Below, in pieces: positions 8,629 through 64,000 of a stretch of 64,000 nucleotides of DNA. Under the pieces are notes generated by a model. That model saw only the letters and a list, made by a program, of their open reading frames with translations. It searched no databases and had not been told where the DNA came from. The stretch covers positions 6,882,001 through 6,946,000 of the forward strand of contig CM060734.1 in NCBI GenBank assembly GCA_030704615.1, given 5' to 3'. Source of the DNA: Takakia lepidozioides (lineage: Eukaryota > Plantae > Bryophyta). Position numbers and translations under genes: made by a program. How positions within the stretch are numbered: the stretch's first letter is position 1; each line of letters starts with the position of its first letter.

Positions 8629-8648
8629 TCCCCAGTATGGTCACCAAA
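8629..8648 (-). promoter_or_regulatory. Putative primer-binding site (PBS)
   Basis: The minus strand reads ...tcaaca|ttTGGtgaccatactgggaa directly after the LTR end. The tRNA identity was not determined. Confidence 0.6.
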
Positions 8649-12860: not shown

Positions 12861-12881
12861 ATGAGCAATCTGATTGATTGC

Positions 12882-20808: not shown

Positions 20809-22255
20809 TTAAGCTGCCGTTGACGGCAGCTTAATCTGTCCTCGCATCATCCCTGCCACTACCCTCCTATTGGATTGTCAATCGTCCGGAAGCAGGGACA
20901 GAATAAGATATCGTCAGCTGAAGCTTAATCTGCCTTTTGTAGGAGCACTCATTTGCTAAAAGAGAGGCTCAAAGAGGAGCACCAGGCCACCAGCTTGTCT
21001 CATGCTTGCATATCAAATATGAGTATTTGGGATGTTTTAAGGAGGACGATTTAGGTAATGTTGATGACACCTTAATCTGGGGCTGATTTTGTTTTGCAAG
21101 CAAACATTGGTTTGCAACGAAAACGAAAGAAGGCGTGGGAGAGTCTACGCGAGTTACCCACTGAGGAACAGGGACCAGACAGGATGCCAATATTGCAAGA
21201 AGACGATGACACTGTAAATGAGGATGAGGTGTAGAGGGAGCTGTCGCCGCCGGGGGCTATGGCGAGAGTGGAGGAGCCAATGGACACACAGGTGCGTTCG
21301 AAGGAAAGGCTCCAAGTGCAAGAGACCAAGTGAGGTGGAGACCAGGGCTCTTCCAGTGGTGTGCAGAAGCAAACGAAAGTTAGTCCATCTCTTACAATTG
21401 ATGCTTTTGAATTCCAAGTTGAATGTGAATAGAGACAGAGGCAGGAGTTGAAGATGCAGATTAAGGCATCATTGACGATAGCTTAATGTGGCCTGTGAGG
21501 GTTAGGCAAGACTAGAGCAGAGTCTCCATTGATAGCATAGAGGAGGACTCCGAATAAGTCATCATTGACGACAGCTTAAACTAGCCCCTCTTTTCCATTC
21601 CAATGGTTACTATGATGAATAAGCAACGAGGCAGATCGCAACATGCTTTCCTTGCTGAGGGGTAGTTTGTAGTAGAGAGGAAATGGGTGATTAAGGCATC
21701 GTTGACGACAGCTTAATGTCGCCTTTCATTTCTGTTCTGAGGGTCTGTTTGAAAAATGAGAAAATAGGCAACTTAGGGAAACGTCTCTATTGTGACAGTC
21801 AGTATGAAGCTGTGAGGAGGGGAAAGATCAAGGCATTGTTGACGACAGCTTCATGTCGCCTTTCATTTCTGTTGTTAGGGTCTGTTTGAAAAATGAAAAA
21901 ACAGGCAACTCAGGGAAACGTCTCCATTGTGACAATTAGTATGAAGCTGTGAGGAGGGGAAAGATCAAGGCATCGTTGACGAAAACTTAATGTGGACTGT
22001 CAATGCCTGATTGAGGGTTAGTTTGAATCATAGAGGAGGACGCATATCCCTGGCATCATTTGCATTGTGAAGGTTACTACAAAAGGGGGAGGAGGAGGTA
22101 GATTAAGGCATCGTCGAAGACACCTTAATGTGCCTGTGATTTCCATTGTGAGGGAGAGTTTGAAACTGAAATAAGAAGGCACATAATGGCATCGTTGCCC
22201 TAATTTCAAGTAGAGAAGAGGATGCAAATTGTGCCATCGTTGACGATGCCTTAAT
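20809..22255. repeat. Array of an imperfect ~26-bp palindrome (ttaaggcatcgttgacgacagcttaa), partly within ~137-bp tandem units
   Basis: Copies at ~20809, 21461, 21557, 21691, 21829, 21966, 22103 and 22231, with 138/137/137-bp spacing from 21691. Another copy at ~5708-5733. Confidence 0.8.
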
Positions 22256-22991: not shown

Positions 22992-23929
22992 GTGAGTGCC
23001 GAATCACTTCCCATTTGTTGGCACTACTGCAAAAAGGGGGGGTTAGTGACGGCAGCCGCGCCCCCATGCCCCGCGCGGTGCTGAGCGTGCGACGCCGGCG
23101 CCACGGCGCCATTTGTGACGCTGGGGCATGGCAAGGCGGCGCCCCGACGCTGCTTGTGACGTTGCCGCGTCGCAACCCAGCGCCCAGGTGTTGCCCCCCA
23201 GCGCCGGGGCCATCCTACAATGCCGGGACGTGGCAAGGTGGCCTCAAGGGCAAGAGGTGGCTTCTTGCCACGCCTGGCCATCGCAAAGGGGGGTGACCCC
23301 ACTTGCCACACTTGGGCATGGCAAGGTGGCTTGAAGGGGGAAAAGACCTCTGCGACGGCCGGGCGTGGCAAGGAGGTATTGCGACGGGGTTTTTTGGCTT
23401 GCCACGGTGGGGGGGTGGCAAGGGGGGGCCGTCTTTTTCTTTGAGTTAAGGGGTAGGGAGAGGGGATGGGGACGGGGGATGGGACTCTAGGGGGGCGCCC
23501 CCACCTCTCTGTTTTTCTTTCTTTGCCCCCCCTCTCTCTCTCCCTCCTCCCTCTCTCTCTTGGTTGTTAATAGATTTGTTTGCAAGATGGCTGTCCCATT
23601 CAACATTTTCAAGGACTTCCACTAATGGGAAGATGCGGACTAGTATTGTGAGTCAGTGTTCTAGGTCAGCTCAAAAACACAAACATCTCCTTCCTCAAGG
23701 CACCTTGGGAGGGCAGCATTGAGACCGCGATCCCCGCGCGACCTCCGAGCCGCCGCCGCAGGTATGCTCCACGCCTCTGCTTGCTGCCCTTTCCTTTCTT
23801 CCCTCTTTCCCTCCCCCACTCTTCTCTCCACAAGCTTTTGGCCCGGCGGTGGATACCAATCCTACGGAGCCATGAATTCACCCCAGTATGGATCCAAGGA
23901 TACTCCCTAGGTGGTGGAGTTACCTGCCT

Positions 23930-24110
23930 TCGTATACCAAACTTATCAAACACTTGAACAATAAAATTAGAGTATGAAACGAGAGTGAAGACAAGCTGGT
24001 CTCCGATTTTGAGGTCGTGGTCGAATGCAAACTTCCTCCACCTGCCAATCACAAAACAACATTCGCTCATACTACATCTACTTCGGGGACTAGGCCATAT
24101 CCTCAAACTC
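23930..24110 (-). pseudogene. Captured B3 DNA-binding domain fragment (REM/VRN1-like)
   Basis: LRIWP..CCFVIGRWRKFAFDHDLKIGDQLVFTLVSYSNFIVQVFDKFG matches the B3 signature GWxxFxxDHxLKxGDxLVF. Confidence 0.75.
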
Positions 24111-24344
24111 ATCCCCGCTACTCGTTGAGGCTGATGACTCCGAGGTGTCATGGCCAGACCGACCATGCGCTTGAGCACTTGAAACATCTATCACTCCCAC
24201 AGAGCTCTGGTCCAATCCCATTTCATCCCCCACCTCATCAAAACTAATGTCCTATGTTGCACTCCCCACTATGTGGGTCATGATATTCATGAGCCCATGC
24301 CAACCATGCTCCTTGGTGTACTCGAACTCCACCGAAGATGGCCC

Positions 24345-29973: not shown

Positions 29974-32900
29974 GAAGATATACATGTCATGTCAAGACAT
30001 GGACAAGACCGCTAAGGTCATTGTCATTGAAAGACAAAACAGCCCTTTACAGGGCACCATCTAACATTCCCTTTCATGTTTACAATCTCATTTGAATACC
30101 CCATTACATTTCAGGGTCTCTGAAAAAACAGGGTGGGAGGGTGGGATTCCAGGTCAATCATATCATGAAAGCACCATAGTTTGCACCATCATTTCAAAAA
30201 CTCATTTCAAACTCATTTCAAAAACCAGATTGCAGGTTTGGGGATATTTCCCAGAATCAAGCTCATAGCACTTCAAGTTGAAACAGCCAGCCATTCATGC
30301 CTTAAGTATTTGCAAGTAGACACAACACCTTAGCAAAACAAGTTGTGCAAACCAGATTGTAGGTCTTGGGACATTCCTCAAGACTCATGCTCAAAAACAA
30401 TTCAAGTTGAGTTTGAACAGTAAAACAAATATGCCTTAAGCATTTGCTGGTTTACATCATGTTTCCTCTTGCCCTATTGGCATGGTTCAAGACATGGTAT
30501 ATATCATGAGGCTGCATGCCAACATCCAGGTTTTGAACAAGTCTTATCCCTAGAGGCTATTGCTGGCCTGAAGGTGACGTTTCAGTGTCGTGTCACAAGC
30601 AGGAATCATAGAACAGAAGCAAGGCAAATTATCCCAAATTTGCCTGCTATCAGCCCTCAAATTCAGACTGCTATGAGAGCCATAATGAGTGTGTGTGTTC
30701 CCTAAACAAGGCGTACCTGTTTGACACAACAGAGTCAAGCTGAGAGGTTTCATTCCAAAGCTAGTTTGGTGATGTATCAATGCCAAACCACAAGCAGTAA
30801 ACAAGAAACCTATGCAAGGTTGAGTGTTCCAAAACAGATCTAGGTCTTGAGTGGTATTCTAGAACCTCCAAAGATCTGAGTTAACAAAGAAACTCAGAAG
30901 AACCCTGCCTGCAGCCAGGCCTTTAAATTGAGAGTCTTTAGCGGGCCAAGGCAACAAAATCCAGGTCTTGAGCATTTCACTTCCCTAAGAAACAGTACTG
31001 GTTTGAAGTTGATGTTTCAGAACCAAGATACAAGCAAGATTCTTAAAAAGGAAGAAGAAACAACAGGGTTGAGCCCCCTTAAGCAGGTATAGGCCTGGAA
31101 TGGTATTTTAAGGCCTCATAAAATAGCTCTGCCAAGGTGAAAGAGCAGCTCAGAAACCCCTGTTTGTTATCAAGCCATGAAACCAAAATGATATGAGGGC
31201 CTTGAAGAATGTGTGTTATCTATCAAAGCTTATCCTTTTGATCCATCAAAGTCATACCAAGAAGTTTCATTTCAGAGCCAAGTATCAAAGCAGTCAGAGT
31301 AATAACTGCTATTTTGTACCCTTGTACCCTTCATAGCTTAACTCCTACACATGCAAATGTGGTTGTAAAAAACCAGAAACAGGGGTAAGGAGAGAAGCAG
31401 ATCCTCATTGGAGCCATCTTGGAGCAGGTCTGAAGCGGCATGGTGGCAATTTGAAGCAGCAAATGGCATCAGCAGCTTAGGCAGCAGCAGTATCCACATT
31501 TGCAAGAACAGGAGCTGCAAGCTTCAAGAAATCAAGACAAGTGAAGACCCTCACCTATGCCCGTCCCAAAAACCACCACATAGCGATGTGTGTTAGTGAG
31601 GATGCAACAGGTGAGTGGCAGGTCTTCACAGTTGCTATCCATGTCAGTGTTGAATTCTAAAGCATGTACAGATCACAATTCAAGCAAGGATAAACTCAAA
31701 AAACCTTGAGTGTTTGTGGTATGCCCTGCGCCATGGCGTCCAACAGATCGTCTCCAACAGAACGCAATCAAAGTAGAAGCGTTCACAGATAGAGAATGGT
31801 TCATACAAGAAGAGAGCAACATGTAATCTGTATATAAATAGGGATAGAGTACTGCCCAACGAGGAGTAAAAGCGCCGCTGCAAAATAAAGAACCATGACT
31901 TTATGAGCAAAGCGATCATCGCTTTGTCGTCTGCCAGAGATGAATCTGCCTAACCGCCAATGCGCATCCCAAGAGCCAGCCATCACGAGTATCATGTAGC
32001 AACAGGGGAGCAGGTTTACGCGGCGCATCATCAAGGTTCACTGAAGCACGAGTTCAGTGTTGTGAAATGTGTCGGCGTGCTTAGGGCATAACTTCCCGAT
32101 TTCTCATCCAGGGTGGATGAAAAATCACATTTTATGAAGAGAAGCACATTGTCAATGGATGACATCCAATAAAAAGGTATCTTTTAGGGTTATGGTATAG
32201 GCTTAGGTTTAATAACTGCCATCATTTATGATGGTAGTTTTATTATCTCTTGGATTTTAAAATAGGTAACCATTATTCATGTAGTTCATCCAGTTTAGAT
32301 GAAAGAAATAGATGGTAAACCAAGCTTTCTGTACATTAAGTTTCATCATCCTATAATAATATCATCCAGATTTGGATGAAAAAGGTTGGGATGAAAAACT
32401 AAATAACCTCAAAAGGTTAAGGCCAGATGAAATCCAAAGAGTTATAGAGGGAGAGGGAGAGACAAGGAAAAAAAACAAAAAGGAGGTTGGGGGGGGGGGA
32501 GTGACTGAGCAGCTGCCCCCTCTCTCTCCCCGCTTAGCAGCAGCTGCTGCTCAGTCAGTCCCCCCCCCACCTTCATTTTTTTTCTTTGTTGCCCCCTCTC
32601 TCCCTCTCTCTCCCTCTCTCCCTCTCCCTCTATAACTCTTTGGATTTCATCTGGCCTTAACCTTTTGAGGTTATTTAGTTTTTCATCCCAGCCTTTTTCA
32701 TCCAAATCTGGATGATTTTATTATAGGGTGATGAAACTTAATGTACAGAAAGCTGGATTTACCATCTATTTCTTTCATCTAAACTGGATGATCTACATAA
32801 ATAATGGTTACCTATTATAAAATCCAAGAGAATAATAAAACTACCATCATAAATGATGGCAGTTATTAAACCTAAGCCTATACCATAACCCTAAAAGATA

Positions 32901-34340
32901 CATTTCTATGGGATGTCATCCATTGACAAAGTGCCTCTCTTGGTAAAATGTGATTTTTCATCCACCCTGGATGAAAAATTGGGAAGTTTTGCCCTAAGCA
33001 GGCCGACACACTTCACAGCACTGAACTCGTGCTTCAGTGAACTTTGATGATGCGCCGTATAAACCTGCTCCCCTGCTGCTACATGGTACTCGTGATGGCT
33101 GGCTCTTGGGATGCGCATTGGTGGTTAAACAGATTCTTCTCTGGCAGACGACAAAGCGGTGATCGCTTTGATCAGAAACTCATGGTTCTTTATTTTGCAG
33201 CGGCGCTTTTACTCCTTGTTGGGAAGTACTCTATCCCTATTTATCTACAGATTACATGTTGCTCTCTCTTTGTGTATGAGCCATTCTCTATCTGTGAACG
33301 CTTCTACTCTGATTGCGTTCTGTTGGAGACGATCTGTTGGACGCCATGGCGCAGGGCATACCACAAACACTCAAGGTTTTTTGAGTTTACCCTTGCTTGA
33401 ATTGTGATCTGTACTTGCTTTAGAATTCAACACTGACATAGATAGCAACTGTGAAGACCTGCCATTTACCTGCTGTATCCTCACTAACACACATCGCTAT
33501 GTGGTGGTTTTTGGGACGGGCATAGGTGAGGATCTTCACTTGTCTTGATTTCTTGAAAGCTTGCAGCTCCTGTTCTTGCAAATGTGGATTCTGCTGCTGC
33601 CTATGCTGCTGATGCCATCTACTGTTTCAAACTGCCACCATGCCGCTTCAGACCTGCTCCAAGATGGCTCCAATGAGGATCTGCTTCTCTCCTTACCCCT
33701 GTTTTTGGTTTTTTACAACCACATTTGCATGTGTAGGAGTTAAGCTATGAAGGATACAAGTATACAAAATAGCAGTTATTACTCTGACTGCCTTGATACT
33801 TGGCTCTGAAATGAAACTTCTTGGTATGACTCTGATGGATCAAAAGGATAGGCTTTGATAGATAACACACATTCTTCAAGGCCCTCATATCATTTTGGTT
33901 TCATGGCTTGATAACAAATAGGGGTTTCTGAGCTGCTCTTTCACCTTGGCAGAACTATTTTATGAGGCCTTAAAATACCATGCTAGGCCTATACCTGCTT
34001 AAGGGGGCTCTACCCTTTTGTTTCTTCTTCCTTTTTAAGAATCTTGCTTATATCTTGGTTCTAAAACATCATCTTCAAACCAAACTTGCAATCTGGTTTT
34101 TGAAATAAGTTTGAAATGAATTTTTGAGATGATGATGCATACTATGGTGCTTTCATGATATGAATGACCTGAAATCCCACCCTCCCGCCCTGTTTTTTCA
34201 GAGACCCTGAAATGTAATGGGGTATTCAAATGAGATTGTAAACATGAAAGGGAATGTTAGATGGTAAAGGGCTGTTTTGTCTTTCAATGACAATGACCTT
34301 AGCGGTCTTGTCCATGTCTTGACATGACATGTATATCTTC
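29974..34340. repeat. Giant fold-back inverted repeat (palindrome) centred at ~32530
   Basis: ORF pairs mirror each other (32372+/32442-, 31801-/33044+, 31338-/33561+). The left arm has ~760 bp (~30240-31000) absent from the right arm. A further copy of the outer end lies at ~34690-34896. Confidence 0.9.
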
Positions 34341-35394: not shown

Positions 35395-36450
35395 TTATGG
35401 GGAAAGAGAAGAAGTCCCGTGCCCCAAAGAAAGGGGCGGAGAACCTATTTGCTCTTCCGGCACGTGTGAAGCGGGCTGGTGTCTCACGGTTAACCAGCCC
35501 CGTCGACAGCCGCAGCCGGAGGGCTCCTCTGCCCCCTGAGGCCAGCCCCCCCCCCCCCCCCCTCTTGTCCTCGTCTTGGATTCGCCAGGGGCCGACTCAG
35601 CCACCTCTCCTATTCGGGAGGTTGTTGCTGGGCTGGATGCTCAGTTGAGCACACCCCCGGCCACCAAGACGGGTGAGATGTACCTTGGCAAGTGCATCAC
35701 CCATTCGGGGGCCCGGTTCGGGCAACTTTTGGATGTCACCCCTATACAGACCCCTTCCTCCGCAACGAAGGCTGCACTTGCCAAGGCCCAAGGTCAGGTT
35801 GAAGGGCCTCGGGAACTGGCGGTTCCTAGCCCAATGTTGATCATGAGGGAGGAGTTGACGAGGAGGGCCAATGAGGAGGCCGAGATAGCGAAGCGCCTCG
35901 GGGGAGGAGGAGCTACGGGCCGGTTTGGAGCGGCCTAGCCGATCAGCGATGCCGCCCCCTCAGCCTGAGCGGTCAGCAAAGAAGGGCCTGGACTACGGGG
36001 TGCCAGCGGCGGCTATGGTCGGCATCTGGAACCTACTTCTAGCGGCGCTCCGGGAGGGGATAGCGCGGGGACTTCTGGCAGCGGGGACTCCCGCCACATC
36101 GGGTGACACCGGGGCCGATTCGGCCAAGCTTGCAAAGGTACAACCGTCGCACCTTGCCCATTCCATGTTTTGTCATTTCCTTTGCATGCATGTATTTCTT
36201 TCTTGTTTGTTTCTTTTTTTGAATTTGGGGGGGTTATTCGTCTTCAGGAGGCAGAGACATTCTTGGCCGGTTGGGTGCACTCCTATGGGGTTGCCAATGA
36301 GGCAGAGCATATGGTGTTGATGAAGGACCCGAACACCAAAGGTAAGAAGAAGAGGCCTTGACCTCTCAAGGTCCCTTTTACCATCAATGAAGGGGCTGCC
36401 GAGGAGAGAGAGAGGAGGGAGAGGGACATCGAACGCCAACCTCGTCGCCA
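35395..36450 (+). pseudogene. Spliced, frameshifted ORF of unknown function inside the CACTA element
   Basis: Co-directional GC-rich ORF pieces (35346, 35576, 35925) with a GT-AG intron at ~36138-36247. No recognisable domain. Confidence 0.35.
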
Positions 36451-37978
36451 ATTGTGTTCTCCTTTGGCAGAACGCACCTCAATAGAGACCCCCACATCAC
36501 TTGTCGGGAGTCTCAGCTTCCGTGTCGTTGCCGGTGTCATGAAGGAGTGCGACGCTCCTGTGTCCACCAACAACGACACGTTAGTTCCGGAAACTATCCC
36601 ACTCACGAACAATAACTGACTCCCTTTACGTAGGGCGCCAGTTTCCTGATACAACTCACAAGAGTAGTTGCTTACCTTGCAAGTCTTGGCGACCACCGCC
36701 TCCACCAAGCGGTTGATGGAATCTTTGGACAACTTCGTGGTTGCCCGAGTCATGTTCAATTGTTGGGGTTTTGTGCACTTCTTGGCCATGTGCCCGGGCT
36801 CCCCACAATTGAAGCACACTCCATCGAAGGTCGCCTTTTGTCCGCCATAGGGTGTCGCACCTGATTTTTCTTTCGGAGCACCAGGTGTCGTCTTGGCGTG
36901 TGAAGGCCCTCCCTTCGATTTCCACGTGCCATTGTCGCCGCGTGGCCTATCCCACTTCTTTTCCGGTCGAAAGGAGTTACCCTCCCGCTGGGTCTTCTTG
37001 TGGTTCAGCTCCGTACGGCCTTGACTTTCGCCCCTAGGGACATCCGAGAAACATTCAGCCCTCTCGATTGCCTCGTTCAAAGTCTTAGGTGGCTTCTCCT
37101 CCAACTTTCGCCTGGCCCACTGAACAAAACCCCGAATGTCATCCGTTTGCTTCAAATTCCTCATCTTGTCCCGGGCGAGCCAGGACGCGTTGAGGGGCAC
37201 AAACTGTCTCTTCATAAGCTCCTTGAACCCACTCCAGTTCAAGGTTTCCGGGTTTGGACCTCGGTCGTGAAGGCGTTTCTGCCACCATTGTTGAGCATAG
37301 CCCCTCAAATAGGTGGGAGCCACTTCCACCCGATCCTCGTCACTCAACTTGGCCGCCCGAAAGTACTGCTCTAGCTCCAAGAGCCAGGTGTTGAGTGCCT
37401 TCCGATTTCGGACACCCTCGAAGGTGCCGGGTTCTTTAGGCTTCACCTTAAACTTTGCCTTAGTAGAAGTGGCATTAGCCGCCTTCAACATGTCTTTCAA
37501 TGTCCCACCAAACTGCGCCAACAACCCTTCCCAAAAGGCTGCTGGCATGGGAGGCATCTGTTGGTCTGTCGGAGCTCTCAGAGATTCCTCGGGCTCCGAA
37601 TCCTCAGATTCCTCCCGTTCTTGAGGCCGAGCAATGAGCTGAATGCTTTGCGCACAAGGGTTCAGTAGACTGACCCTGGGACCTACACGGAATAGGACTA
37701 CTCATCCTCATCCTCATCCTCATCGTCAGAGGAGGAGTCATAGCTATCCGATGAGCCTGATGACTCCGCGCCCTTTGCCTGAGCACATAAACCAGGCGGC
37801 ATTCCCCTAACTCCCACAGAGCTCTCATATAATCCCTGGCCATGACGACTCCCCCCCCCCCCCCCTCAGCCATACTAGTGCCCTGTAGTGCACTCATCCC
37901 CTCCGTCTTGGCCATGTTGGTCATGAGGGATTGCCAACCATGTTCCTTGGCGTAGTCGTACTCTACCGGAGATGACAA
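36450..37978 (-). mobile_element. Truncated Ty3/Gypsy fragment: gag, zinc knuckle, protease
   Basis: KPKEPGTFEG..WLLELEQYF..YLRGYAQQWW; CFNCGEPGHMAKKC; LLVDTGASHSFM. Breaks off before RT. Confidence 0.85.
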
Positions 37979-52199: not shown

Positions 52200-55100
52200 G
52201 CTTCATCATTAGCATGTAACTAATCTAACCGGTGGGTCAATTACAATACCCTAGATGAATCTGATTTAACAACACTCCCCCTCGATCTGAAGATGGGTAT
52301 TTCAGAGCGTCCTTATTGATAATTGGCTTCATTGCGAAGGAACTGTCACTACTGAATATTTACAAGTCCTAATTGTCCTCTAAGCTTTTCGAATGCAGTT
52401 CTTCCCAGGGATTTCGTCAATATGTCAGCCAGTTGTTCTGTTGTAGGCACGTGATTCACTTCGACCTCCCCTGAAATGATCTTCTCTCTCACAAAATGGT
52501 GCTTTACCTCAATGTGTTTTGTCCGTCCGTGATAAACTGGGTTGTGCGCCAAGTTGAGGCTTCCTTGGTTGTCACCGTAAATGGTCGTGGACTGTTTTGA
52601 ATCTTGGATTCCGATTTCCCCTAGCAGCCTCCACAGCCAAACGGCCTCCTTGGTGCCTTCGGTCAAAGCCATGTACTCTGCTTCAGTCGATGAAAGCACC
52701 ACCGTAGGTTGCTTCTTGCTGTTCCAAGTGATCGGAGTGCTCCCGAGCATAAACACATATCCTGTTGTCGATTTTCTGTCGTAGGCATCGCCTGCCCAAT
52801 CGGCATCCGTAAATCCAAACAGATCATCATCCTCCCCTCGCCAATACAACAAAGCAAAATCGATTGTACCTCATAAGTACTTATAGATGTGTTTCACTGC
52901 CTGAGCATGAGGTTCTTGCGGCTGGGACATAAATCTGCTCACAACACTGACTGCAAATGCTATGTCAATTCTAGTATGAGTCAGAAAAATCAACTTGCCC
53001 ACCATTCATTGGTAGCGTGCTATATCTGCAGGTGGACCCCCCATGTCGGGAACAAGCTTGATCTTCTCAGGCAGTGGTGTGTGAGTAGGATTGCAGTCGG
53101 AAAATCAAATTCCTTTAGCATCTCTTTGATGTACTGTCTCTGAGTAACCATGATTCCTTCATCCACGAATATAAATTCTAGTCCAAGTGAGTATGACAGG
53201 AGACCTAAGTCTGACATCTCGAACTCCTTTTGAATTTCTTCTCGTATCAAAGCTATGCGTTCATCGTGGTTGCCAGTAAGGTAGACATCATCAACATAGA
53301 GAATGAGCAAAACAGTTTTCCATTTTTCTTCGTAGAAGTAAAGGTTGTAGTCTGCATTCGACTTGAACAACCCTTGACTCTTGAGGTAAGCATCGACCTT
53401 ACTGTACCAGGCTCTAGGTGCCTGTTTCAGACCATAGAGTGCCTTTTTGAGTTTGTAGGCATACTCACCTATGGAAGCTTCAAAGCCTGGAGGTGGTAAG
53501 ACGTAGATTTCTTCTTCTAGAATTCCGTTGAGGAATGCTGTCTTAACATCCAAGTGGAAGATTTTCCACCCCTTGTGTGCTGCCAGAGCTACCATGCTTC
53601 TCAAGGTGTTCCACTTCACCACAGGAGCAAAGGTTTCCGTGTAGTCCTGCCCTTCCTTCTGTTGGAATCCCTTGGCCACCAGCCTCGCTTTGAGTTTTGC
53701 TGCCGATCCATCTGCATTTGTTTTTACGCGGTATATCCACTTGGTGGCAATGGGCTTTCTGTCATGAGGTAGATGAACTAATTCCCCCAAGTGTCGTTCT
53801 TGTAAATGGATTGAAGCTCATTGTCCATTGCCTCCTTCCACCCAGGATGCAACATGGCCATCTTGTGATCCAAAGGCAAGTCGATCAACTGGATCTCTTC
53901 AGCGGCATTAATGTGATAGTCTTGAAATCTGGTGGGAATTCGACTTACTCTGCCACTCCTGGTAACTGAGGTGGGTAGGTCTAGAGTTGCTAATCGTCTT
54001 CTTTGGTACGTCTTCAGCGGCACAATGGTACGAGCAGGTGGATCGAGACTCATTGGTGGCTGAATGAGGAATTCTTCAGGGTTGATGGCGATCGATCCTG
54101 CATGACCACTTTCCTCGATTATCCCTTCCGAAGAAACTTCCTCCGAGCCTTGAGTCATATCGTAAGCGGGGGACGGGAGTGCCACCTGAGATGCTTGGAT
54201 TTCTCCCTCATGACCTAATTGTGCAGCGTTGAAAGGATGATCTCCTTCTTCCTTTCCCTCAGTCATTAGCCACTGAAATTCCTCTCATGGCTTGGAGCCA
54301 AACTTGATGATCTCAGAGAATGGAAAAATGCTCTCATCAAACTTGATGTCCTTGGTTATAAGAACCTTTCTGGTCTCTCGATTATAGACTCTGAATCCCT
54401 TTGAGGTGGAGTCATAACCAAGAAAAGTGCACTCAGTGGCTCGTGGAGCCCATTTTTCTCTGGCAGGTGAGGTATTCAGCACGTACGTTCGACAACCAAA
54501 AACTCGAAGGTGCCTCACTGATGGTTTAGTCCCCGTGATCCTCTCGTATGGAGTATCCCCATTGTTGGCTCGAGTGGATGATTGGTTGATTAGGTAATTT
54601 GCAGTGTTAACTGCTTCAGACCATAAGTGAGCAGGTAGATTGCTTTCAAAAGCCATGCTCCGTGCTCACTCCAACAAGCTCCTGTTTTTCCGCTCAGCTA
54701 CTCCGTTTTGGTGTGGAGTGTGAGCTTGAGTTAGCTGCCTCACAATTCCGTTATCACCACAGAACTTGATAAACTCGTTTGAGGTGTATTCACCTCCCCT
54801 GTCTGAGCGTATGGCTTTAATTTTTGAGCCTCTCTGAAGTTCAACAGTAGCCTTAAATTGTTTGAACTTAGTCAGAGTCTCGCTTTTCTTCTTCAAAAAA
54901 TAGAGCCAGGTATATCGACTGAAGTCATCAGTCATGGTGAGTATATACCTCGATCCAGAAGCTGATTTGGTGGAGAGAGGTCCACATAGGTCAGTGTGGA
55001 TTAGGGCCAGGGGCTCCTCTGTTTGTCGAGCTCCATGCTTTGGGGCCCGCTCCCGTGATTCTTTGCATGCATCGCAGATGTTTGCCCTTGCTCCCTTTTT

Positions 55101-56040
55101 TGGCTTTGCCAGTGTGGCATGCAATGCAGAAATGGTCTGGAATTGTGATTTGAGGCAGTCCTTCAACCTTAGCATTTGAGGCCATCAACTGTAGACTTTT
55201 GAAGTTAACATGCCCCATTCTCCTGTGCCAGGGGAGTGCGTTCTTTTCTGCTGTGTCGGCCTCAATGCTTTCAGCAACATTTATTTTCTAGGTGGTCTGA
55301 ATTTGTAAAGGCCATTGGACCTATCCCGTTGGCCGATTGTCACCACATGACGAGATTCTGGTGTAGGGAAGTTGTTCAGTATCCAGACTCAGCTTGAATC
55401 AAAGAGAACTTTGTGTTTCTTGTCAGCAATAGATCCTACTGAAAGCAAGTTTTTCGTGATACCCGGTACATGCAGAACCTTCTCAGATTTTATTGCTCCA
55501 TCTACAGTGGGAATCTTCACATTGCCCTTTCCCTTTACAGCGAGAGCTTCTCCCCCAGCAGTGTTGATGTTGGAGCTACCACCCTTCTCATATTCACAGA
55601 GTAGGTTTTTGTGACCAGTGACATGCTTGGAGGCACCACTGTCTATGAACCATTCTGCAATCTTCTGATCAGCCAGATTCAACTCAGTTATATTGGCTGC
55701 TAGTTGTGTGGTCTCAAAGAACTCCTCATCCTCATCATCACTTGTAAAATTGTCTACAAGGCTAGCAACATTAACAGTTAATTCCTCCTTGCGGTTTGCC
55801 TTGCGCTTGGCCAGTTCGGTAGCTAGCTCAGGGCAGTTGCGCATCCAGTGGTCCGCCTTGCCGTAGTAGTGACACTCGCCCTTCTTCTTGTCACTCGTAG
55901 CACCCGATGCAGTTTTGCGGCTGGTCAGGTTGTGCTTGTAATGCCCCTTAACAAGTAATGCTTCTCCATCCCCACGTTTCCCGTGATTGACTTCACGTCT
56001 TATGTCATCCTGCATGAGAATAATCATCAGTTCTGCTACA
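52200..56040 (-). mobile_element. Ty1/Copia LTR retrotransposon, 5'-truncated (zinc knuckle, protease, integrase, RT, RNase H, PPT, start of 3' LTR)
   Basis: WFIDSGASKHVT; LIHTDLCGP, IRSDRGGEY, PHQNGVAERKNR; KARLVAKGF, LDVKTAFLNG, LYVDD; [33 protein letters not shown] gagggggag next to tgtt at ~52274. The far end of the 3' LTR was not determined. Confidence 0.95.
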
Positions 56041-56044
56041 GAGC

Positions 56045-56191
56045 GAATAGGTTTAGGTTGGGGGGGGTTTGGAATTGGATGTATTAGCCAGAAGGGGTGC
56101 GTATGTGCAGTGTGGATGGGGTCTGTGGGGGGTTCTACTGGGGGTTTGGACGCCCCTAGTTGGGCAAAGAGGTCAGCCTCCTCGTTCCCGT
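56045..56191 (-). pseudogene. Short RNase HI-like fragment (probably non-LTR/LINE-derived)
   Basis: NGNEEADLFAQLGA matches the RNase HI C-terminal motif GNExADxLA. Confidence 0.5.
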
Positions 56192-56718
56192 TGTCGTGCG
56201 CATACGTATCGCTACACAACTACATCGCTGTCCAAACCACACCACACATATATGCACAATAAAGTAGTCTGCCACAATGATAAAAAAGCTAAGAACACAC
56301 TGTTCACACAAGAAACAACATGAATCCAGCAGCATCACTCTTTAAGATAATAGTCGAGCCAGAGGCACCCCAAGCTATGGGGACTCCACCCCACAACAAC
56401 CTATACTCCATACATAAACACACTCAGATTCTAAAGCATGAAGGAGCTCGGTCGCGCAGGCTCAACTCGAGAGAGATGAGCTGCGCAACTGACGTTCTCG
56501 TGAAGATAAGACGGTTCAGGTGTCAAACTAAACTTGACACCTGATTTAACACTTGACCTAAATCCAAGTGTTAAATACAAATAACTAGCTTTATTCTAAT
56601 TAGTTTCACACTGTGCTTATTTAACTTGACAGCTGTCGTGCGCATACGTATCGCTACACAACTACATCGTTGTCCAAACCACACCACACATATATGCACA
56701 ATAAAATAGTCTGCCACA
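56192..56718 (-). repeat. 3' LTR region with B-A-B structure (~86-bp direct repeat at both ends)
   Basis: 56192-56278 and 56634-56720 are near-identical (tgtcgtgcgcatacgtatcg...gtctgccacaat). A G-rich PPT (minus strand ctagggggg) at ~56721-56731. Confidence 0.75.
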
Positions 56719-56977
56719 ATCGCCCCCCTAGCTGGTGGATAGGTCCCTCTAACTCCAGATAGCTACAAGATGTAATAGCCACAGCCGTACTAAGTCCTCT
56801 ATCACTGTCCCTATTGTACTCAAACTCTATTGACCAAGAGGCCGGGTACAAGAGTAGCCCTATCGTTAGTCGCCGTCTTGCAATCTGTGAACTTGAGCCA
56901 GGATCTCGTGTATTCAAGGTCTCCTGTAGCTGGGAATTGCGTTGCTTGTTAGCCTTCCATGGTTGTATCCACTCCCA

Positions 56978-58230
56978 CTATCCAATGCAATGTGGACATA
57001 ACCAATCCCCATCCGGAACCATCTCAAGAGGTGGAGTCAAGCATCCCATATGCCAACCTCTAGAGCATCGATCACACACCAGCATGGTGGCTGCCTTTCT
57101 AGCAGACCCACACAACATGCACCTCAAACTTGCAGATACCACTGCCAGGTTTGGGTCAATCATGCCATCGACATTCGGAAGGTGACATGGCGCACAATTA
57201 CGCACATGGTCCTTCCAAGTTATGCCATCCCGACCCTCCAAGACCAAGACGCCTGAGGGTAAGACCTCTCGAACCCTCAAAATAACACATCTTGCAGTCA
57301 CATCCAAGGTCGTAGGAGCAGTCTGCTGCAGATAGACGTAGTCACCAGGGTTGAATCTCCGAACCCCAGGACGATAGCCTCCACCACGTATGGTAGCATA
57401 CCTCAACGTATCACGGTGTTGTGCAATGGCAAGGTTCTCGAAAGCCATGGGCATGACTTTCTTGAACAACTCTGCACGCTGCTCACATGCACGTGTCCAC
57501 ACGTCCGGATCGTCAAGATTAAGAACTGTAGCAGCTTTTCTGCGAATGGATGTAGGCAAATCCGGCTCTCGGCCAAAGAGAAGAAAGTATGGTGAGAAGA
57601 AGGCAAGTGATGCTTGCTTGTTGAACCTGTAGCCCATGGCTAACCAGGGTAACTGAAGGTCCCAATCTCCTAGGTGTCCATTTTGCAAGCCATACTTGCG
57701 CAAACCCCTCTTTACTATCTGAACAACTCTCTCTGCCAAGCCATCGGCCTCGGGATGATTCCGAGAAGTGGTGCGGTGGTCTATCAAGGCCTTGTCACAC
57801 AAAGCCTGAAACTCTCCCAAGAACTCTCTCCCTTGGTCCGTGAGTACCTCAGCTGGAGCACCGAATCGGCTAAGCACACAATCCAAGAATGCATACGCAG
57901 ATCCCTCACTAGCCTTATCAGGCAATGGAACCAACTCAATCCACTTGGAGAAGTGCTCCACCATCACCAACACGTACTTGTTGTGGCGCATGGTCAGTGG
58001 CAACGGCCCTGCGAAGTCAAGACTCCACCTGTAGCCCAATCCCATGATCGGAAGAGGGTGCAATTGTGGAGTAGGGGTGTTGAATGAAGCACGCACCCTG
58101 TCACACACCATGCACCTAGCCACAAATTATTGTACCTCTGTGTGCATATCACGCCACCAATACTGCCCCTGCAATAGACTATGAGTGCGTCACACCCCAA
58201 AATACCCCAACTCCTCATGGGCATGCCGCA
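56978..58230 (-). CDS. Gypsy integrase with C-terminal PHD finger
   Basis: DDE core, then CMLCGSARKAATMLVCDRCSRGWHMGCLTPPLEMVPDGDWLCPHC (C4HC3). Confidence 0.92.
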
Positions 58231-58288
58231 CTAACCGTGCCCGCTGTGTTGGGTGAGGCACAATCCTCACTCGACCATCCTCCCACAC

Positions 58289-59986
58289 TCAGAGCAGGTG
58301 TGTCCCCTCCCACTTGAACCTCTTGGCTCGTTGTAGGACCCGATCCCTCTCCTTGGCAGTCACAATGGCTGTAGTGTCTCCAGTGCGGAGGTAGTCCAAC
58401 ACAACTGAATCCTTATGTATATCTTTTGCGCCACCTTGCTCATTGCTGGCCTCAAGGTCCTCAGACACTTGATCTACAGTCATCCCTGTTGCAGGTCCAA
58501 CCTGGCCTTCCGCTGCCAAGATACACAGAAATGCAGATGCATGCCATCCAGACACCATCTCCTCGTCTGTCTCACCATGCCACCGAGCTCCAGTGTCATC
58601 CTGTTGGCTCGTGCATGGATTGCGACTCAACCCATCTGCATTGCGATTGACCAAACCCGGTCGATGCACCACCTAAAAGTCATACTCTTGAAGGATGAGT
58701 GCCCACCGTGCAAGCTTCCCCGTAAGCTTGTCTGACTCCATCAACCACTTGAGTGGTTGGTGATCCGTGACAAGGGTGAAGAGATTGTCGTATAGATAAC
58801 ACCTGAAGTGTGCCACGGCCCACACTGCAACTAAGCATTCTCCCTCATATGAGCTATACTTAGACTTTGCAACGTTGTTCGAGCGGCTAGCATAAGCCAC
58901 TACGAACTCTCTTCCCTCATCATCCACATGTGTGAGCACCGCTCCAAGCCCCAGCATGCTCTAATCTGTATGCAGCTCAAAAACACGCCCCCTGATAGGT
59001 CATCTCAAGATGGGCGCCGAGGTCAACCTCGCCTCGAGCTCTTGAAAAACTTGTTCTTGCTCATCTTCCCACTGCCACTCCTGGTCCACCTTGGTCAGCT
59101 TGGTTAGAGCCTTTGCAATGGCACTAAATCCCTTAACAAACCGTCTATAATAGTTTGCTAACCCCATGAAAGCTCGAACTCGGCTCACATCCGTGGGGCG
59201 TGGAACCTGTGCAATGGACTCTACCTTAGTCTGTTGTACCCCCAATCCTCCAGGATATATCATGTGACCCAGATACTCAATCTGGTTGTGGAAAAACTTG
59301 CACTTTCCCGGATGTAACTTCAATCCGTGCGCCCTCAAGCGCTCAAATACCCCCTGAAGGTGTCTCTCATGCTCTTCCACCGTAGCACTAAAGATGATGA
59401 TGTCATCTATGTAGCACCGAGCAAACTCCACCCCTGCTAGAATCTTGTCCATGACTCTCTGAAACTCTGCCGGAGTGTTCTTAAGCCCAAATGGTAAGAA
59501 CCGCCACTGATATAGGCAATCCTTCCCGTGCTCATTGATCCCCCAGAATGTCGTCTTTTGCTTATCCGCCTCCTTGATCGGCAACTGGTGATATCCGGAT
59601 CGTAAATCCAACGTGCTAAAGACCTTGGCATGCCCAATGGCATCAAAGATCTCCTCTGGTGTTGGCATGGCATACCTATCGGACTTGGTCTGACGATTTA
59701 CAGGCCGGTAATCACCGCACATACGTCTCTCCGTCCAATTGCCAAAGACATCCTTCTTGGCTGGCATCACTGTGGCTGAAGCATACTCTCCCCCAGATAG
59801 CTCCACCAAACCAGCCTCCCAAAGGTCCTGAGTTCTCATCTGAATCAAGGACCTCTCCATGTCACTGTATCTATAGGGTCTCCGAAAGATTGGCATGTCA
59901 GTAGCCAATTCAATGCGAATCTCTTGACCCTTCAGTGCTCCTAAGTCCTTCAAACTGAAGGCAAAGCAGTTCTTGTAAGCCCTCAA
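58289..59986 (-). pseudogene. Gypsy reverse transcriptase and RNase H (in-frame stops)
   Basis: ORFs 59000-59986, 58673-58957 and 58289-58672 share one frame with the integrase ORF. Confidence 0.95.
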
Positions 59987-60167
59987 GAACCGCCGTATAC
60001 GTCGTCTCTCTCCTCCGGTGACTATAGGTCCAACATCAGGCTCCTAGTTGTCCTCCGTGACTGCAATCTTGAGTCCAGCAGGCTTAGAGGTAGAAGACGC
60101 GTCCCGTGGTTGTTATGCTGCAACCTCTTGAGCAGTGACCACTACCTCCTCTGTCAGTGACAATGTC

Positions 60168-62216
60168 TCATCCTGCCCCCATCATCCCATTCTTGAGGAC
60201 CTCCTCAATCCGAGAAAAATCCCCAACCTGATCCATCACCGCCGCCTTGGCTGCCAACTCCTTCTGAACCTCGAGCACCTCCCACGTGTGCCATGGATGC
60301 GGCCTGCACCTCGTGGTCCTCACCTGCTTGCCCCCACTCGCTGTCTGTACCGTCTCGGTAGGCGGGGAGACCATGAAGGGAAGTGTACTTTGTATTCTGC
60401 GCTGCTCAGCCATAGCCAAGCTGATAATCCAGGTCAAGCAATTGAGATCCATTGTTTGCCCCAACACCTGACGACGTGATGCCTCAGACAGAGATGGCAC
60501 CGCCATGGTACCAGTGGTAAAACCCATCGCTCGCTCGCGCTCGTCAGCATTGGGCTCCACTAATTGTTGCAACTGGCTATCCCACAAGAGGCCAGGTCCA
60601 CCATCCCGAAAAGCATGAGATCCTGGGAAGCTGAGCAGTGTAGGTAATGCTGCTCGTGGTTGATTCACCCTGTTGACCACTGCCAAAGGCGAACGGTCAT
60701 CGTGTCTCATACGTTGAGACTGCCTCCCTGTGTCCAAAATGCTATCCACTGTGAGGTGTGCTGGCCGCTGCACCCCATCAAATGCACGCTTGAGCAGTGC
60801 GGGTGGCATCAAGTTAGTCCACCATAGCCGTGGACGATGAGCCCGTGACCCCACTGCAGCTGCATCCAGCAACACTGCTGACCCAAGCCACGACCGGACT
60901 TGATGCACACTGGCCATCACCCTGGCCCGAGAATCACCCATCGGTGGCACATTCTCCAAGATGTATGCTGGAAATACAGCTTGATGAAGCTGCAAGTGGC
61001 GCAAAACCCGCACCATCTCCCAAAACAGACCCGTCCTCGAGTCTCGCAATCCATTGCCATGCCCGGCTGATGAATGCCCTTGGCAGGGCCAACCTGCCAC
61101 TACCAGATCAATGGAGCCAACCTGCTCCAAATCCTGCGCCCCCAGCAACGAAATGTCTGCTGGCAAGGCTTGTTGGTATCCACGAACTGCAGACACTGAC
61201 AACAAATCAGGGTACTGCTGTACCAACTGAGCAACATGGCGTAGTGAGACGTGTCGTGCAGTCTCATCCCTCTCTACATACAGGTAACGTTGAACTCGTG
61301 CACCTGCCTGCAGCACTGCAGCCAATCCAGTGCTGATCCCGCCAAACAAGTCCAGAAGGCATATGCCTTCATCCGGGCACTGCCACACAAGAGGTGTGGT
61401 ATCCAATGGCGACAACTGAGGTGGTCCTGGTGCAATCACCGCACTCTCCTCTTTTCCTGACGGTATGAAGGCCTCTACCCAGGCTTGTTGCACCCGTCCA
61501 TCAGCAGCCTGCTGCAAATCCTTGCTCGTACCCCACAATGGAGTGTGAGCAACCATGGCAGGCAACTCCGCCGTACCATGCATGTCATCTTGCTCTGCTG
61601 AAGGTGGCACATCCTCTGCATGGGCATTGCCTTCCAGCAACTCTCCAGGCCAACTAACTACAGCTGTAAAGGTGGCTAGTGTTGGCATTTTGTCCCGCTG
61701 GGCAGCCGCAATATCCCCAATGAATGTCACAGGGAGCTGTGCACAACGACCATGCCCTGACTGCCATCCAGGCCTGTAGGATGCTGACTCCTCCCAAAAG
61801 TCCAGGGTGAAGCCCATGGGATATAACACTGCCCCACCAACAAGGACATCGTAAGAGACTGCGTCTGTCATAATGGCTTTGGCTCGCATCACTGAGCCAT
61901 CTATAGGATGATCCGGCTGCAGTCTAATGGCCAACTCACGCCGTGTCATGCCCCGAGCCTGCTCTGATCCTCCCAGAGATGTCTGTATCTGAAAAGGACA
62001 AGGCTCCATATCCGCCTCCATGAGGCCCAAACCTGCGATAGCAGCTCTGTCCAACATCAATGGCTGAGCTCCCGAGTCCAACAAGACCCGAAGTGGCTGG
62101 TACTTCTTGCCTGCCGGTCCACTCAATGAGAAAATGCCCTCATGGTTGTCTAACAATACAACTCCAGGTGTCACCATGGCGCGCTCAAAGGCTGGCCTAG
62201 CTGGTAGCTCCGTCAA
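60168..62216 (-). CDS. Aspartic protease fused in frame to a DNMT3-like DNA (cytosine-5) methyltransferase (MTase domain ~61367-60420)
   Basis: Motif I LLDLFGGISTG; II YLYVERD; III ADISLL; IV IDLVVAGWPCQG; VI YILENV; VIII AHRPRLWWTNL; IX ERERAMGF; X RRQVLGQTMD. Uninterrupted ORF. Confidence 0.93.
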   Translation of the reverse strand: MTELPARPAFERAMVTPGVVLLDNHEGIFSLSGPAGKKYQPLRVLLDSGAQPLMLDRAAIAGLGLMEADMEPCPFQIQTSLGGSEQARGMTRRELAIRLQPDHPIDGSVMRAKAIMTDAVSYDVLVGGAVLYPMGFTLDFWEESASYRPGWQSGHGRCAQLPVTFIGDIAAAQRDKMPTLATFTAVVSWPGELLEGNAHAEDVPPSAEQDDMHGTAELPAMVAHTPLWGTSKDLQQAADGRVQQAWVEAFIPSGKEESAVIAPGPPQLSPLDTTPLVWQCPDEGICLLDLFGGISTGLAAVLQAGARVQRYLYVERDETARHVSLRHVAQLVQQYPDLLSVSAVRGYQQALPADISLLGAQDLEQVGSIDLVVAGWPCQGHSSAGHGNGLRDSRTGLFWEMVRVLRHLQLHQAVFPAYILENVPPMGDSRARVMASVHQVRSWLGSAVLLDAAAVGSRAHRPRLWWTNLMPPALLKRAFDGVQRPAHLTVDSILDTGRQSQRMRHDDRSPLAVVNRVNQPRAALPTLLSFPGSHAFRDGGPGLLWDSQLQQLVEPNADERERAMGFTTGTMAVPSLSEASRRQVLGQTMDLNCLTWIISLAMAEQRRIQSTLPFMVSPPTETVQTASGGKQVRTTRCRPHPWHTWEVLEVQKELAAKAAVMDQVGDFSRIEEVLKNGMMGAG

Positions 62217-62234
62217 TCTGACAGCTGCAGCTTG

Positions 62235-63998
62235 CTAGGGCGCAGCTGTGGCAGTCTTGACCCTCAAATCCGAGGATCCCTCTGCCACTACACCTTCCAC
62301 TAACTCCACAGAAGATGAAGTGACCTCCCCACTCTCACAGAGTGTTGCTGCTAGTCTGAACACTGCAGCTGGTCTTACCCCCGGCGTTGCAATCATGGTT
62401 GCCGAGAATAGTGGGGCTTGACACACAGAGGTGGCTGCCCCCAATAACACACTGGCTGCACTAGCCTTGGTAGCAGGTGTTAGTGATGCACGTGTAGCTC
62501 TCCCTAATGGCATAGTAACCTCCACCTCGGTAACAGTCGGGCGAGAACTAGGTGCCATGGATGGCGTCGACACTGTCTCCGCCAATGTGAATGACTGAGG
62601 AAGCCTCGCCTGACGGCTTGCCTCCCCACGCTGTGGATCCAATTCCACCTCAGCACCTCGTGGCTCAGGAACTCGTGTTGCTTCTCGAGTCACGGCTGCA
62701 GCAGACTCCACCTGCTCTAGTGGTAGTGCTGCTCCGCACATGAATCCCATGCCTCCCATATCTCCTCCCTCAGGAGCAGGAGGTGGACCATCCCGCCTTG
62801 GAGCTGGTACCACCTGAGCTATAACCATGGCAGCGAGCCTCTGCTCTACCTGCTGAAGCCGGTTGGCCATGCCTTGGTCAACACCCTGACCTCCGCGTCC
62901 TTGGCCATGTTGCGCTTGCCCTTGGCCTGCGCCTCGTGCCCGGCCACCTCGTCCTCTCTAGGCTGGTCCACCTCGCCCCCGGCCACCATTGCTCCCTTGG
63001 AACTGGCCTGGGCGCAACTCAGGGTGCAAGTCATAACACTGGGCATCTCCATGCCCATATTTGCCACAATGCCCACACTGCAATTGTGCAGGCTGTGCTT
63101 GTGCTGGCTTTCTGCCACTCTCTGGGCAATCTCTCTTGACATGGGGTCCTCCACATGTCCAACATATCACCCCTGGTTGCTGTTGGCCTGCAAAAGATGC
63201 CACGGGCCTCTACACCTGAGGTCCCCTGTAAGCTCCATGGAACTTGGGTTGGGAAACCTTGCCCCCCTGACCACGCTGTTGGGCAGTCCCTTGTGCCTGT
63301 GGGCTGGCAGCTGCGCTTTGTGCAGGCATGTCCTTGCCAAATCCAATGGTAACAACTCGCTCCTCCACCATGTTGAGCTCAATCCGCTCAGCGAGCAGAA
63401 ACACATCTGTTAATGTGGGTTGGGCTGTTTGTAACAGGGTTGCATCCCGCACTCTTCTCCTGAGCTCCTTGTCCAAAATTCCATACCAGAACTGGATTGC
63501 CTGAGCTTTAGTAACCCCTTGGGTCATACTTATCAAGCGCCTCATACGAGTGTAGGCCTCTCGCAAGCTCTCACTAGGTTTGCGCTGGAAGTCTTGCAAA
63601 CTTCGCAACTTCTCTGTCCGTACACCTTGGTAGTTCATCCGCAACTCCTGGAAGAACTCCACCACCGGGTTGAATCTAGGCACATGTGTTGTAGTCGTGG
63701 CAGGAGGAGTAGTAGCACCTTTTGAACTGGTACCACCTGCAGAAGTACCGGCACTACTTGTTCCACTACTAGTGCTGGCAGTGGGAGATATTGGTACTGA
63801 TGCAGCTACTGGTCGCATCGTGCCTCGAGTAATGGAGACGTAGTCAGGTGACCAATACATCCTCCACTCCTCAATCTCTGCTTCATGTCCTCGCCTGAAC
63901 TCGTGGTAATCGTCCATAGGCGGGCCTTCCAAATGCTGGAACAGTCCCTTCCGCGCCATGAATGGGGTGAACAGCTGTGGATTGCACATCTGCTGCAA
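62235..63998 (-). pseudogene. Gypsy gag (capsid-like region and two zinc knuckles)
   Basis: LQDFQRKPSESLREAYTRM..FWYGIL; CWTCGGPHVKRDC; CGHCGKYGHGDAQC. Same frame as the protease-MTase ORF. Confidence 0.85.
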
Positions 63999-64000
63999 AT

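Follow-up and report, generated by a model that had tools for sequence, protein, structure and literature searches.

Gypsy-DNMT3 retrotransposons of green plants: a DNMT3-type methyltransferase placed ahead of a conserved, probably leaky stop codon

Introduction

The fusion of a DNMT3-type DNA methyltransferase (MTase) with a Gypsy retrotransposon has been known since 2018, when KnitGypsy-Dnmt3 was described from Klebsormidium nitens (PMC5890265). The name Gypsy-DNMT3 is used for elements of streptophytes in a preprint (10.64898/2026.05.21.726589), and a streptophyte case also appears in PMC12344493. As described, KnitGypsy-Dnmt3 was found in one alga, whose own lineage was taken to have acquired the DNMT, and this DNMT lay in the RT/RNase H ORF; its enzyme gave no methylation in yeast, a result that the authors considered inconclusive (PMC5890265). 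The same account reported SymbioDIRS-Dnmt3 of Symbiodinium, a retroelement DNMT3 that methylates CG in yeast and that belongs to a tyrosine-recombinase DIRS element, unlike the Gypsy element studied here. The first-pass annotation of the present DNA had mentioned retrotransposon-borne methyltransferases from dinoflagellates and a charophyte alga, which agrees with that paper.

Other systems share parts of this arrangement. The EpiLTRs of Euglena and Cymbomonas are likewise LTR elements with a DNA-methylation writer and a chromatin reader, but they carry a DNMT4-related enzyme, an adenine methylase and a chromodomain, and are described as of independent origin (10.64898/2026.05.21.726589). The Ogre elements group the protease with Gag and express RT-RH-INT at a lower level, but they use an intron of ~274 bp, and the available part of the account gives neither a methyltransferase nor a single in-frame stop (PMC6317226). 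A Chlamydomonas Gypsy element with a PHD finger is reported with no methyltransferase in the available text (10.1101/2022.06.16.496473), and the available part of a Marchantia study names five methyltransferases and leaves DNMT3 unmentioned (PMC5784723). In-frame stops are described between gag and pol of MuLV, between pol and env of soybean SIRE1, and in Candida Tca2 (PMC2194720).

Since 2018 it has been an open question why some retrotransposons encode the very enzyme by which they are normally silenced, and the Gypsy case had consisted of one alga and an enzyme that gave no activity in yeast (PMC5890265). The window analysed here, the whole 64-kb stretch of Takakia lepidozioides DNA, contains a copy of an element that we assign, from sequence comparison, to the kin of the Gypsy-DNMT3 and KnitGypsy-Dnmt3 lineage. 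What appears to be new is the host range, the layout with a stop after the MTase, and a relocated form in chlorophytes; in the open-access literature neither the family's occurrence in liverworts, mosses or chlorophytes nor the relocated form nor the stop was found described. Members in Marchantia, Calypogeia, Sphagnum, Closterium, Mesostigma and chlorophytes push the capture toward the root of the green plants, or imply horizontal spread, and place the family in hosts that are amenable to genetics. From the stop after the MTase an unusual stoichiometry is predicted, with a DNA-methylation writer made at capsid level. Element-borne domains also raise the number of DNMT3 genes counted in annotations of bryophytes and algae, and pose as 'bacterial' methylases in mis-binned contigs.

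Organization of the window element

The element lay on the minus strand and had the Ty3/Gypsy domain order GAG-PR-RT-RH-IN, with the MTase between protease and RT (Table 1). The gag, protease and MTase regions shared one frame and RT, RNase H and integrase followed one frame over, as the first-pass annotation had described. Three features had escaped the annotation: an in-frame stop (60113-60115), a PHD finger that ends the integrase, and the split direct repeats.

Table 1. Features of the element copy in the window (positions of the window)
Feature	Position	Strand	Basis or remark
Gag region (capsid-like part, two Cys/His knuckles)	62235..64000	-	Retrotrans_gag, E 0.003; frame of protease and MTase; three stops
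Aspartic protease	61700..62234	-	LLDSGA at 62076-62078, read from sequence
DNMT3-type C5-cytosine methyltransferase	60420..61400	-	Pfam DNA_methylase PF00145, E 1.8e-12
MTase motif I	61326..61355	-	
MTase motif IV (PC)	61071..61097	-	
MTase motif VI (ENV)	60948..60962	-	
MTase motif VIII (RxR)	60813..60842	-	
MTase motif IX	60519..60542	-	
MTase motif X	60447..60464	-	
G5 run, frame change of the window copy	60176..60180	-	Length varies among copies
Stop and hexamer CAA CCA, candidate type I readthrough site between ORF1 (Gag-PR-MTase) and pol	60107..60115	-	TAA in the window copy
Reverse transcriptase	59003..60043	-	RVT_1, E 3e-32
RNase H, interrupted by stops	58600..59002	-	Pfam search and frame reading
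Integrase zinc-binding and core domains, interrupted by stops	57400..58450	-	Pfam search and frame reading
PHD finger, integrase C-terminus	56987..57121	-	Pfam, E 1.2e-10
Purine-rich tract just 5' of the 3' repeat, likely plus-strand primer	56721..56729	-	Read from sequence
Repeat B1 of the 3' B-A-B split direct repeat	56634..56720	-	87 nt, 98% to B2
Repeat A2	56279..56633	-	Inferred from the A...B-A-B layout of L015, L041, L046 and L005
Repeat B2, element 3' end (...GACA)	56192..56278	-	Summed depth jumps ~200-fold across the end

The long uninterrupted ORF of the annotation was confirmed. The minus-strand frame 60168-62234 was open from stop to stop for 688 codons, and the originally annotated 60168..62216 gave 682. 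This stretch had no start of its own, the first ATG being located at 62177, and belonged to the gag frame, in which three stops lay upstream. The frame of RT, RNase H, integrase and PHD finger contained seven further stops in addition to that at 60113-60115. The window copy is dead and decayed. The contrast drawn by the annotation between a stop-free MTase and stop-bearing neighbours was true as described and yet within chance. Simulations that scattered 10 stops over 2,320 codons left an open run of 688 codons or more in 22% of cases, and an MTase of 327 codons free of stops also in 22%; the chance would be 3% had the exact 688-codon stretch been specified in advance. The intact ORF was therefore rejected as a sign of selection (P=0.22).

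The Pfam match of the gag-asp protease (E 0.009) was below the cut-off. The start of gag and the 5' repeat of the window copy fell outside the window, where repeat A1, the partner of A2, would sit 5' of gag. The 3' B-A-B part of the split direct repeats was present in the window, and the complete A...B-A-B layout in L015, L041, L046 and L005. Homologous gag was present in L003 and L010, and a similar purine-rich tract in L003, L005 and L007. A target duplication of 4 bp, as expected for integrase, flanked one full-length locus, and another locus showed a 3/4 match. The window copy also had a stop at 60044-60046, close to the end of the aligned stretch.

The window element resembled KnitGypsy-Dnmt3, as described in PMC5890265, in its Gypsy domains, its intronless, non-permuted Dnmt3, its DIRS-like split direct repeats and its purifying selection. 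The Ka/Ks below 0.2 that characterizes KnitGypsy-Dnmt3 was also found for the intronless MTase of the window family, with values of 0.08-0.10 in the closer pairs. The window MTase was 38% identical over 322 residues to the K. nitens protein GAQ93235.1 (P0112), and both fell in one clade of a quick tree (SH-aLRT 97). From its protease motif, its MTase and its species, we infer that P0112 is one of the copies of PMC5890265. In comparison with KnitGypsy-Dnmt3 as described there, the MTase of the window clade was in the RT frame but set apart by a conserved in-frame stop, and the present family was also found in land plants, other streptophyte algae and chlorophytes.

Identity and fold of the methyltransferase domain

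The window domain is a complete, intronless DNMT3-type C5-MTase. The motifs were found in the non-permuted order that had been claimed for them. When the window domain alone was compared with solved structures, the best match was DNMT3A (E 7e-10), and a family profile of 87 rows gave E values of 9e-28 for DNMT3A, 5e-14 for DRM and 2e-9 for M.HhaI. An AlphaFold model of the MTase had a pLDDT of 95.9; a single-sequence fold was discarded at a pLDDT of 36. The top Foldseek match of the model was the DNMT3A structure 6f57 (E 5e-20). In a fold search of 48,161 chains, DNMT3B was matched with a Z of 29.1 (r.m.s.d. 2.6, 279 aligned residues) and DNMT3A with a Z of 27.8, and lower values were obtained for M.MpeI (25.6) and DNMT2 (20.8-22.5). 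In sequence and fold, the domain was thus nearer to DNMT3A/B than to DRM, DNMT1/MET1/CMT, DNMT2, DNMT5 or bacterial enzymes, which bears out the assignment of the first-pass annotation as DNMT3-like and not DRM-like; nor was it Dcm-like. A UBA domain, as in DRM, was not found in the Pfam search, and the motif order also differed from that of DRM.

The catalytic residues were almost invariant among the 87 aligned rows. The cysteine was present in 86/87, the glutamate of ENV in 87/87, and the two arginines of RxR in 84/87 and 86/87. The MTase is likely to be catalytically active on DNA.

The bacterial and viral collections, searched to their 80 best loci apiece, yielded no close donor; the best true prokaryotic or viral match had ~30-35% identity and covered only part of the MTase. 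The strong 'bacterial' match L081 was rejected as a sign of a bacterial donor; it was a contig of a whole element filed in a bacterial bin. The homologues returned included no host DNMT3 or DRM, and the last homologue search gave 18 long proteins. The MTase tree was built with Symbiodinium, viral and bacterial sequences as its only outgroups, and the Symbiodinium protein P0395 fell outside the green-plant MTase clade.

The stop between methyltransferase and RT

The frame change at the G5 run, which had been annotated at ~60177, did occur there, but it was not the gag/pol boundary of the family. One letter was missing from it in 32,254 of the 88,444 depth of run X1 and in the single contig of X5, whereas the X7 contig had the letter; X9, which may be an RNA run, had the shorter form in one alignment, and in another its piece ended there. 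Because the length varied among copies and the relatives kept gag, protease, MTase and RT in a single frame, a programmed frameshift was rejected and the frame change was regarded as a lesion.

In the window family, a stop was located 24 codons before RT. It was TAG at 60113-60115 in 99% of the aligned X1 depth and in all aligned X5, X7 and X9 contigs, and the following CAA CCA showed no change of at least 5% in the aligned X1, X5, X7 and X9 sequence. The element L081 had a single stop in 2,210 codons, which lay between MTase and RT and read TAG CAA TCA, and the corresponding junction of L062 was TAG CAG TTA. The loci of the Sphagnum type, so named from a match to the end of a Sphagnum protein, had a stop in 11/13 cases (10 TAG and 1 TAA), always at a distance of 18 codons from RT and in 10 followed by CAA; their hexamer, CAA CCC, was one letter off CAR-YYA. 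The sequence UAG-CAR-YYA was therefore exact, and in frame with the downstream ORF, in the window family, L062 and L081. The spacer from stop to RT was 18, 24 or 25 codons, yet the reading frame was maintained, and the stop, the frame and CAR-YY(A) were retained while the flanking amino acids diverged among families. Elsewhere in these elements CARYYA was rare, following 0.2-0.4% of ordinary codons. The four stop-bearing families formed one clade, and count as long conservation and not as four origins.

A break after the MTase was also observed in other members. In a further family it was seen at the protein level, where five proteins shared an end after the MTase and separate proteins began with RT, from contigs of the same lengths. 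In L012, which represents a second lineage, the stop lay at another position, with TGA CGG immediately following motif X; UGA-CGG is the type II readthrough motif. The proteins P0112, P0122, P0123, P0398 and P0399 ended at the residue of the L012 stop, P0112 being similar to L012 and known as a protein only, from a partial gene model. Families without the stop also exist, and a second moss-associated family had its MTase fused to RT. Downstream of the stop, no shared RNA structure was detected at five loci (z of -1.4, -1.6, 0.05, -3.9 and -0.14), and the junction gave no Rfam match.

From these comparisons, ORF1 encodes Gag-PR-MTase, with the stop after the MTase as a conserved family boundary before pol. 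Type I readthrough in plant viruses such as tobacco mosaic virus (TMV) is signalled by UAG-CAR-YYA (PMC3542737), and the conserved UAG is probably read through, so that pol would be made as a fusion. The likeness to TMV would extend to the position of the signal in frame between an abundant upstream product and a rare polymerase fusion. Unlike the stops described for TMV, MuLV, SIRE1 and Tca2, that of the window family follows a protease and an MTase, which would put two enzymes on the abundant side.

Proposed mechanism and alternatives

The reading that we favour, with modest confidence, is that ORF1 of Gypsy-DNMT3 ends at a likely leaky stop and that the MTase is packed in bulk and methylates the cDNA of its own element before insertion. 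The readthrough ratio of TMV is about 10:1 (PMC2754532) and the Gag:Pol ratio of retroelements 20:1 (PMC2194720). By analogy, readthrough of 5-10% would yield a ~10-20-fold excess of Gag-PR-MTase over RT-RH-IN-PHD. The MTase would enter the virus-like particle at Gag level, would presumably be freed from the polyprotein by the protease of the element, and would methylate the particle cDNA before integration. This cDNA is, on balance, the substrate towards which we lean, and CG would be the context most to be expected, given what DNMT3A and SymbioDIRS-Dnmt3 methylate. The PHD finger may then direct the pre-methylated copy to a particular type of chromatin. A likely gain is that the new insertion would arrive marked, would resemble established repeat DNA of the host and would damp its own expression. 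More broadly, and tentatively, a lineage as old as the green plants may package a DNMT3 at capsid stoichiometry by means of a leaky stop and integrate pre-methylated copies at sites chosen by the PHD finger. The stop in this broader proposal might be UAG-CAR-YYA in the bryophyte clade and, separately, UGA-CGG in the Klebsormidium type, a pairing that we put forward with similar reserve.

Depletion of CpG was rejected as a footprint of self-methylation. The CpG o/e was 0.44-0.61 in the element and 0.53 in the neighbouring Copia, with no extra depletion, and among the transitions, at least 32 in number, the 32 listed (9 CG, 8 CHG and 15 CHH) were only mildly CG-rich.

With the same enzyme and the same stop, the abundant MTase could instead be nuclear and act in trans, its targets being the chromatin of the host, older copies or elements that compete with its own. 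Output at Gag level would far exceed the need of one 9-kb cDNA, and trans effects on the host methylome have been raised for Symbiodinium (PMC5890265). However, the covalent linkage to Gag would place the MTase in the particle by default, the fused versions and those located between RNase H and integrase can act only together with Pol, and the K. nitens methylome, as reported, appears ordinary (PMC5890265). We hold this reading to be unlikely.

The stop could also be a true ORF end, with pol expressed by splicing, an internal promoter or reinitiation; the MTase would still be made at Gag level and RT would be unfused. An intron separates GAG-PROT from RT-RH-INT in Ogre (PMC6317226), and promoter activity is described at the Tca2 junction (PMC2194720). 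The TAG might serve as a splice acceptor, and an ATG followed the stop three codons on in the Sphagnum type and five codons on in L062. However, in the window and in L081 the first 60 codons beyond the stop contained no in-frame ATG, and the 50 nt upstream of the stop (44-48% AT, 22-34% T) were unlike plant introns in composition. The frame was, moreover, kept across the stop and CAR-YYA matched in three families, and another route to pol is accordingly judged rather improbable beside readthrough of the UAG.

Retention of the MTase domain for nucleic-acid binding or RNA methylation, and not for DNA methylation, is very unlikely. The inactivity of the K. nitens enzyme in yeast would fit such a use, and RNA has been suggested as the substrate of a LINE-borne DNMT, but DNMT3B failed in the same yeast assay (PMC5890265). 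The near-invariant catalytic and cofactor motifs, and a fold nearer to DNMT3 than to DNMT2 by the Z values given above, also argue against it.

Family range, linkage and selection

The MTase had named homologues in Calypogeia fissa (73%), in Marchantia polymorpha (at most ~70% across the full domain) and in two species of Sphagnum, as well as in Closterium, Monoraphidium, Scenedesmus, Mesostigma and Klebsormidium nitens; a Coleochaete homologue consisted of the RT part only. Intact-looking relatives of the element exist, and the family is present in Marchantia. The element was highly repeated in public runs, with 77,971 contig pieces of run X1 aligned over 8.1 kb. The summed depth, which is not a copy number, was ~2,200 in the flank bin and 0.43-1.3 million in every element bin. 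A contig of 5,009 nt from another organism spanned the MTase to the PHD finger at 96% identity.

Linkage was assessed by a scan with an RT query, which was blind to the MTase and returned 80 loci. Among the 51 kept (a minimum of 700 nt upstream and of 38% RT identity), many of which were near-duplicates from few hosts, the MTase was located upstream of RT in 45. The remaining six comprised two with the MTase inverted, one with an internal deletion, two with other DNA upstream, and one without a PHD finger that probably belongs to another family. A PHD finger was present in 60/61 MTase-bearing proteins that reached beyond the integrase core.

The MTase was constrained like RT between families, where MTase identity was 48-69%, and 81% for L081 and L062. 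The dN/dS values of MTase and RT were 0.098 and 0.076 for the window against L001, and 0.098 and 0.094 for L081 against L062. With dS near saturation between families, the MTase gave 0.08-0.10 in closer pairs and 0.22-0.26 in the deepest pairs. Within families, among dead copies, both domains were relaxed (MTase 0.40-0.75, RT 0.34-0.69). The notion of a one-off piece of a host or bacterial gene decaying neutrally in the window copy, to which the relaxed values within families and the 6/51 exceptions might be credited, is refuted for practical purposes by the equal relaxation of RT, the between-family dN/dS of about 0.1, the homologues in equivalent position from Mesostigma to Marchantia, the nature of most of the exceptions, and the distant, partial prokaryotic and viral matches. 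The comparisons support the MTase as a fixed, selected part of the element family.

The MTase-bearing elements formed one RT clade (SH-aLRT 100; 45 of 73 rows used). The MTase and RT trees of 38 taxa were correlated (Mantel rho 0.67), with 8/10 strong MTase splits recovered in the RT tree and one conflict. In a set of 230 MTase-bearing proteins, the MTase followed RNase H or preceded integrase in 94 and was fused before RT in 17; 44 were protease-MTase proteins without RT and 75 contained the MTase only. Since many members lack the stop (the 17 fused and the 94 relocated), bulk expression of the MTase is not required for persistence of the lineage. The relocated position, between RNase H and integrase, was that of chlorophyte-type elements, including those of Scenedesmus and Monoraphidium. 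Because this type was a single clade nested among the others in both the MTase and RT trees, a single capture of the MTase domain, followed by a single relocation, is likely.

Repeat junction and priming

At the 3′ end of the Gypsy-DNMT3 element, the junction of the direct repeats B1 and A2 was a short palindrome, GACA-GC-TGTC, which was conserved across three diverged families and resembled a circle junction joining two element ends. Visual inspection of the sequence following A1, the 5′ partner of A2, revealed no obvious tRNA primer site in the related loci L003, L005, L015, and L041, and therefore priming may be unusual.

Variation around the methyltransferase

In the Klebsormidium-type lineage, a second stop was located at another position, immediately 3′ of the methyltransferase (MTase), where TGA CGG formed a type II readthrough motif. 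This stop directly after the MTase suggests that the published KnitGypsy-Dnmt3 element of Klebsormidium nitens (PMC5890265) may likewise not carry DNMT and RT in a single uninterrupted ORF. In the chlorophyte-type elements, the same MTase was situated between RNase H and integrase (proteins P0089, P0061, P0104, and P0381–P0394), which is a domain move within pol.

The whole of locus L081 and the protein P0025 represented plant or algal retrotransposon contigs assigned to bacterial metagenome-assembled genomes, in which the MTase of such contigs was labelled a bacterial methylase.

Other features of the window

A short piece (56060–56191) adjoined the 3′ end of the element and continued into a decayed Copia element; its motif resembles the terminal part of an RNase H, putatively of the cellular or LINE type. 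The two further Gypsy gag-protease remnants contained no methyltransferase match, and the B3-domain fragment was consistent with a plant host. Two long inverted repeats were also observed, one at 31000–34080 (arms of about 1.5 kb, 93–96%, spacing of 152 nt) and the other at 8644–9650 and 18669–19674 (arms of about 1 kb, spacing of 9 kb), with a Gypsy remnant between the arms of the latter.

Positions of features in the window and in related sequences
Feature	Sequence	Position	Strand	Details
B1/A2 junction palindrome	window	56625–56645		
B1/A2 junction palindrome	L003	13340–13370		
B1/A2 junction palindrome	L081	about 7040–7060		
TGA CGG stop after MTase	L012	207–215		proteins P0112, P0122, P0123
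Ty1/Copia element, decayed	window	52350–56050	minus	Pol_BBD, rve, RVT_2
Gypsy gag-protease remnant	window	12156–14681		
Gypsy gag-protease remnant	window	36283–37701		
HECT-domain fragment	window	2138–2887		
B3-domain fragment	window	23666–24187		
Tandem repeat	window	21526–22027		four 137-nt units
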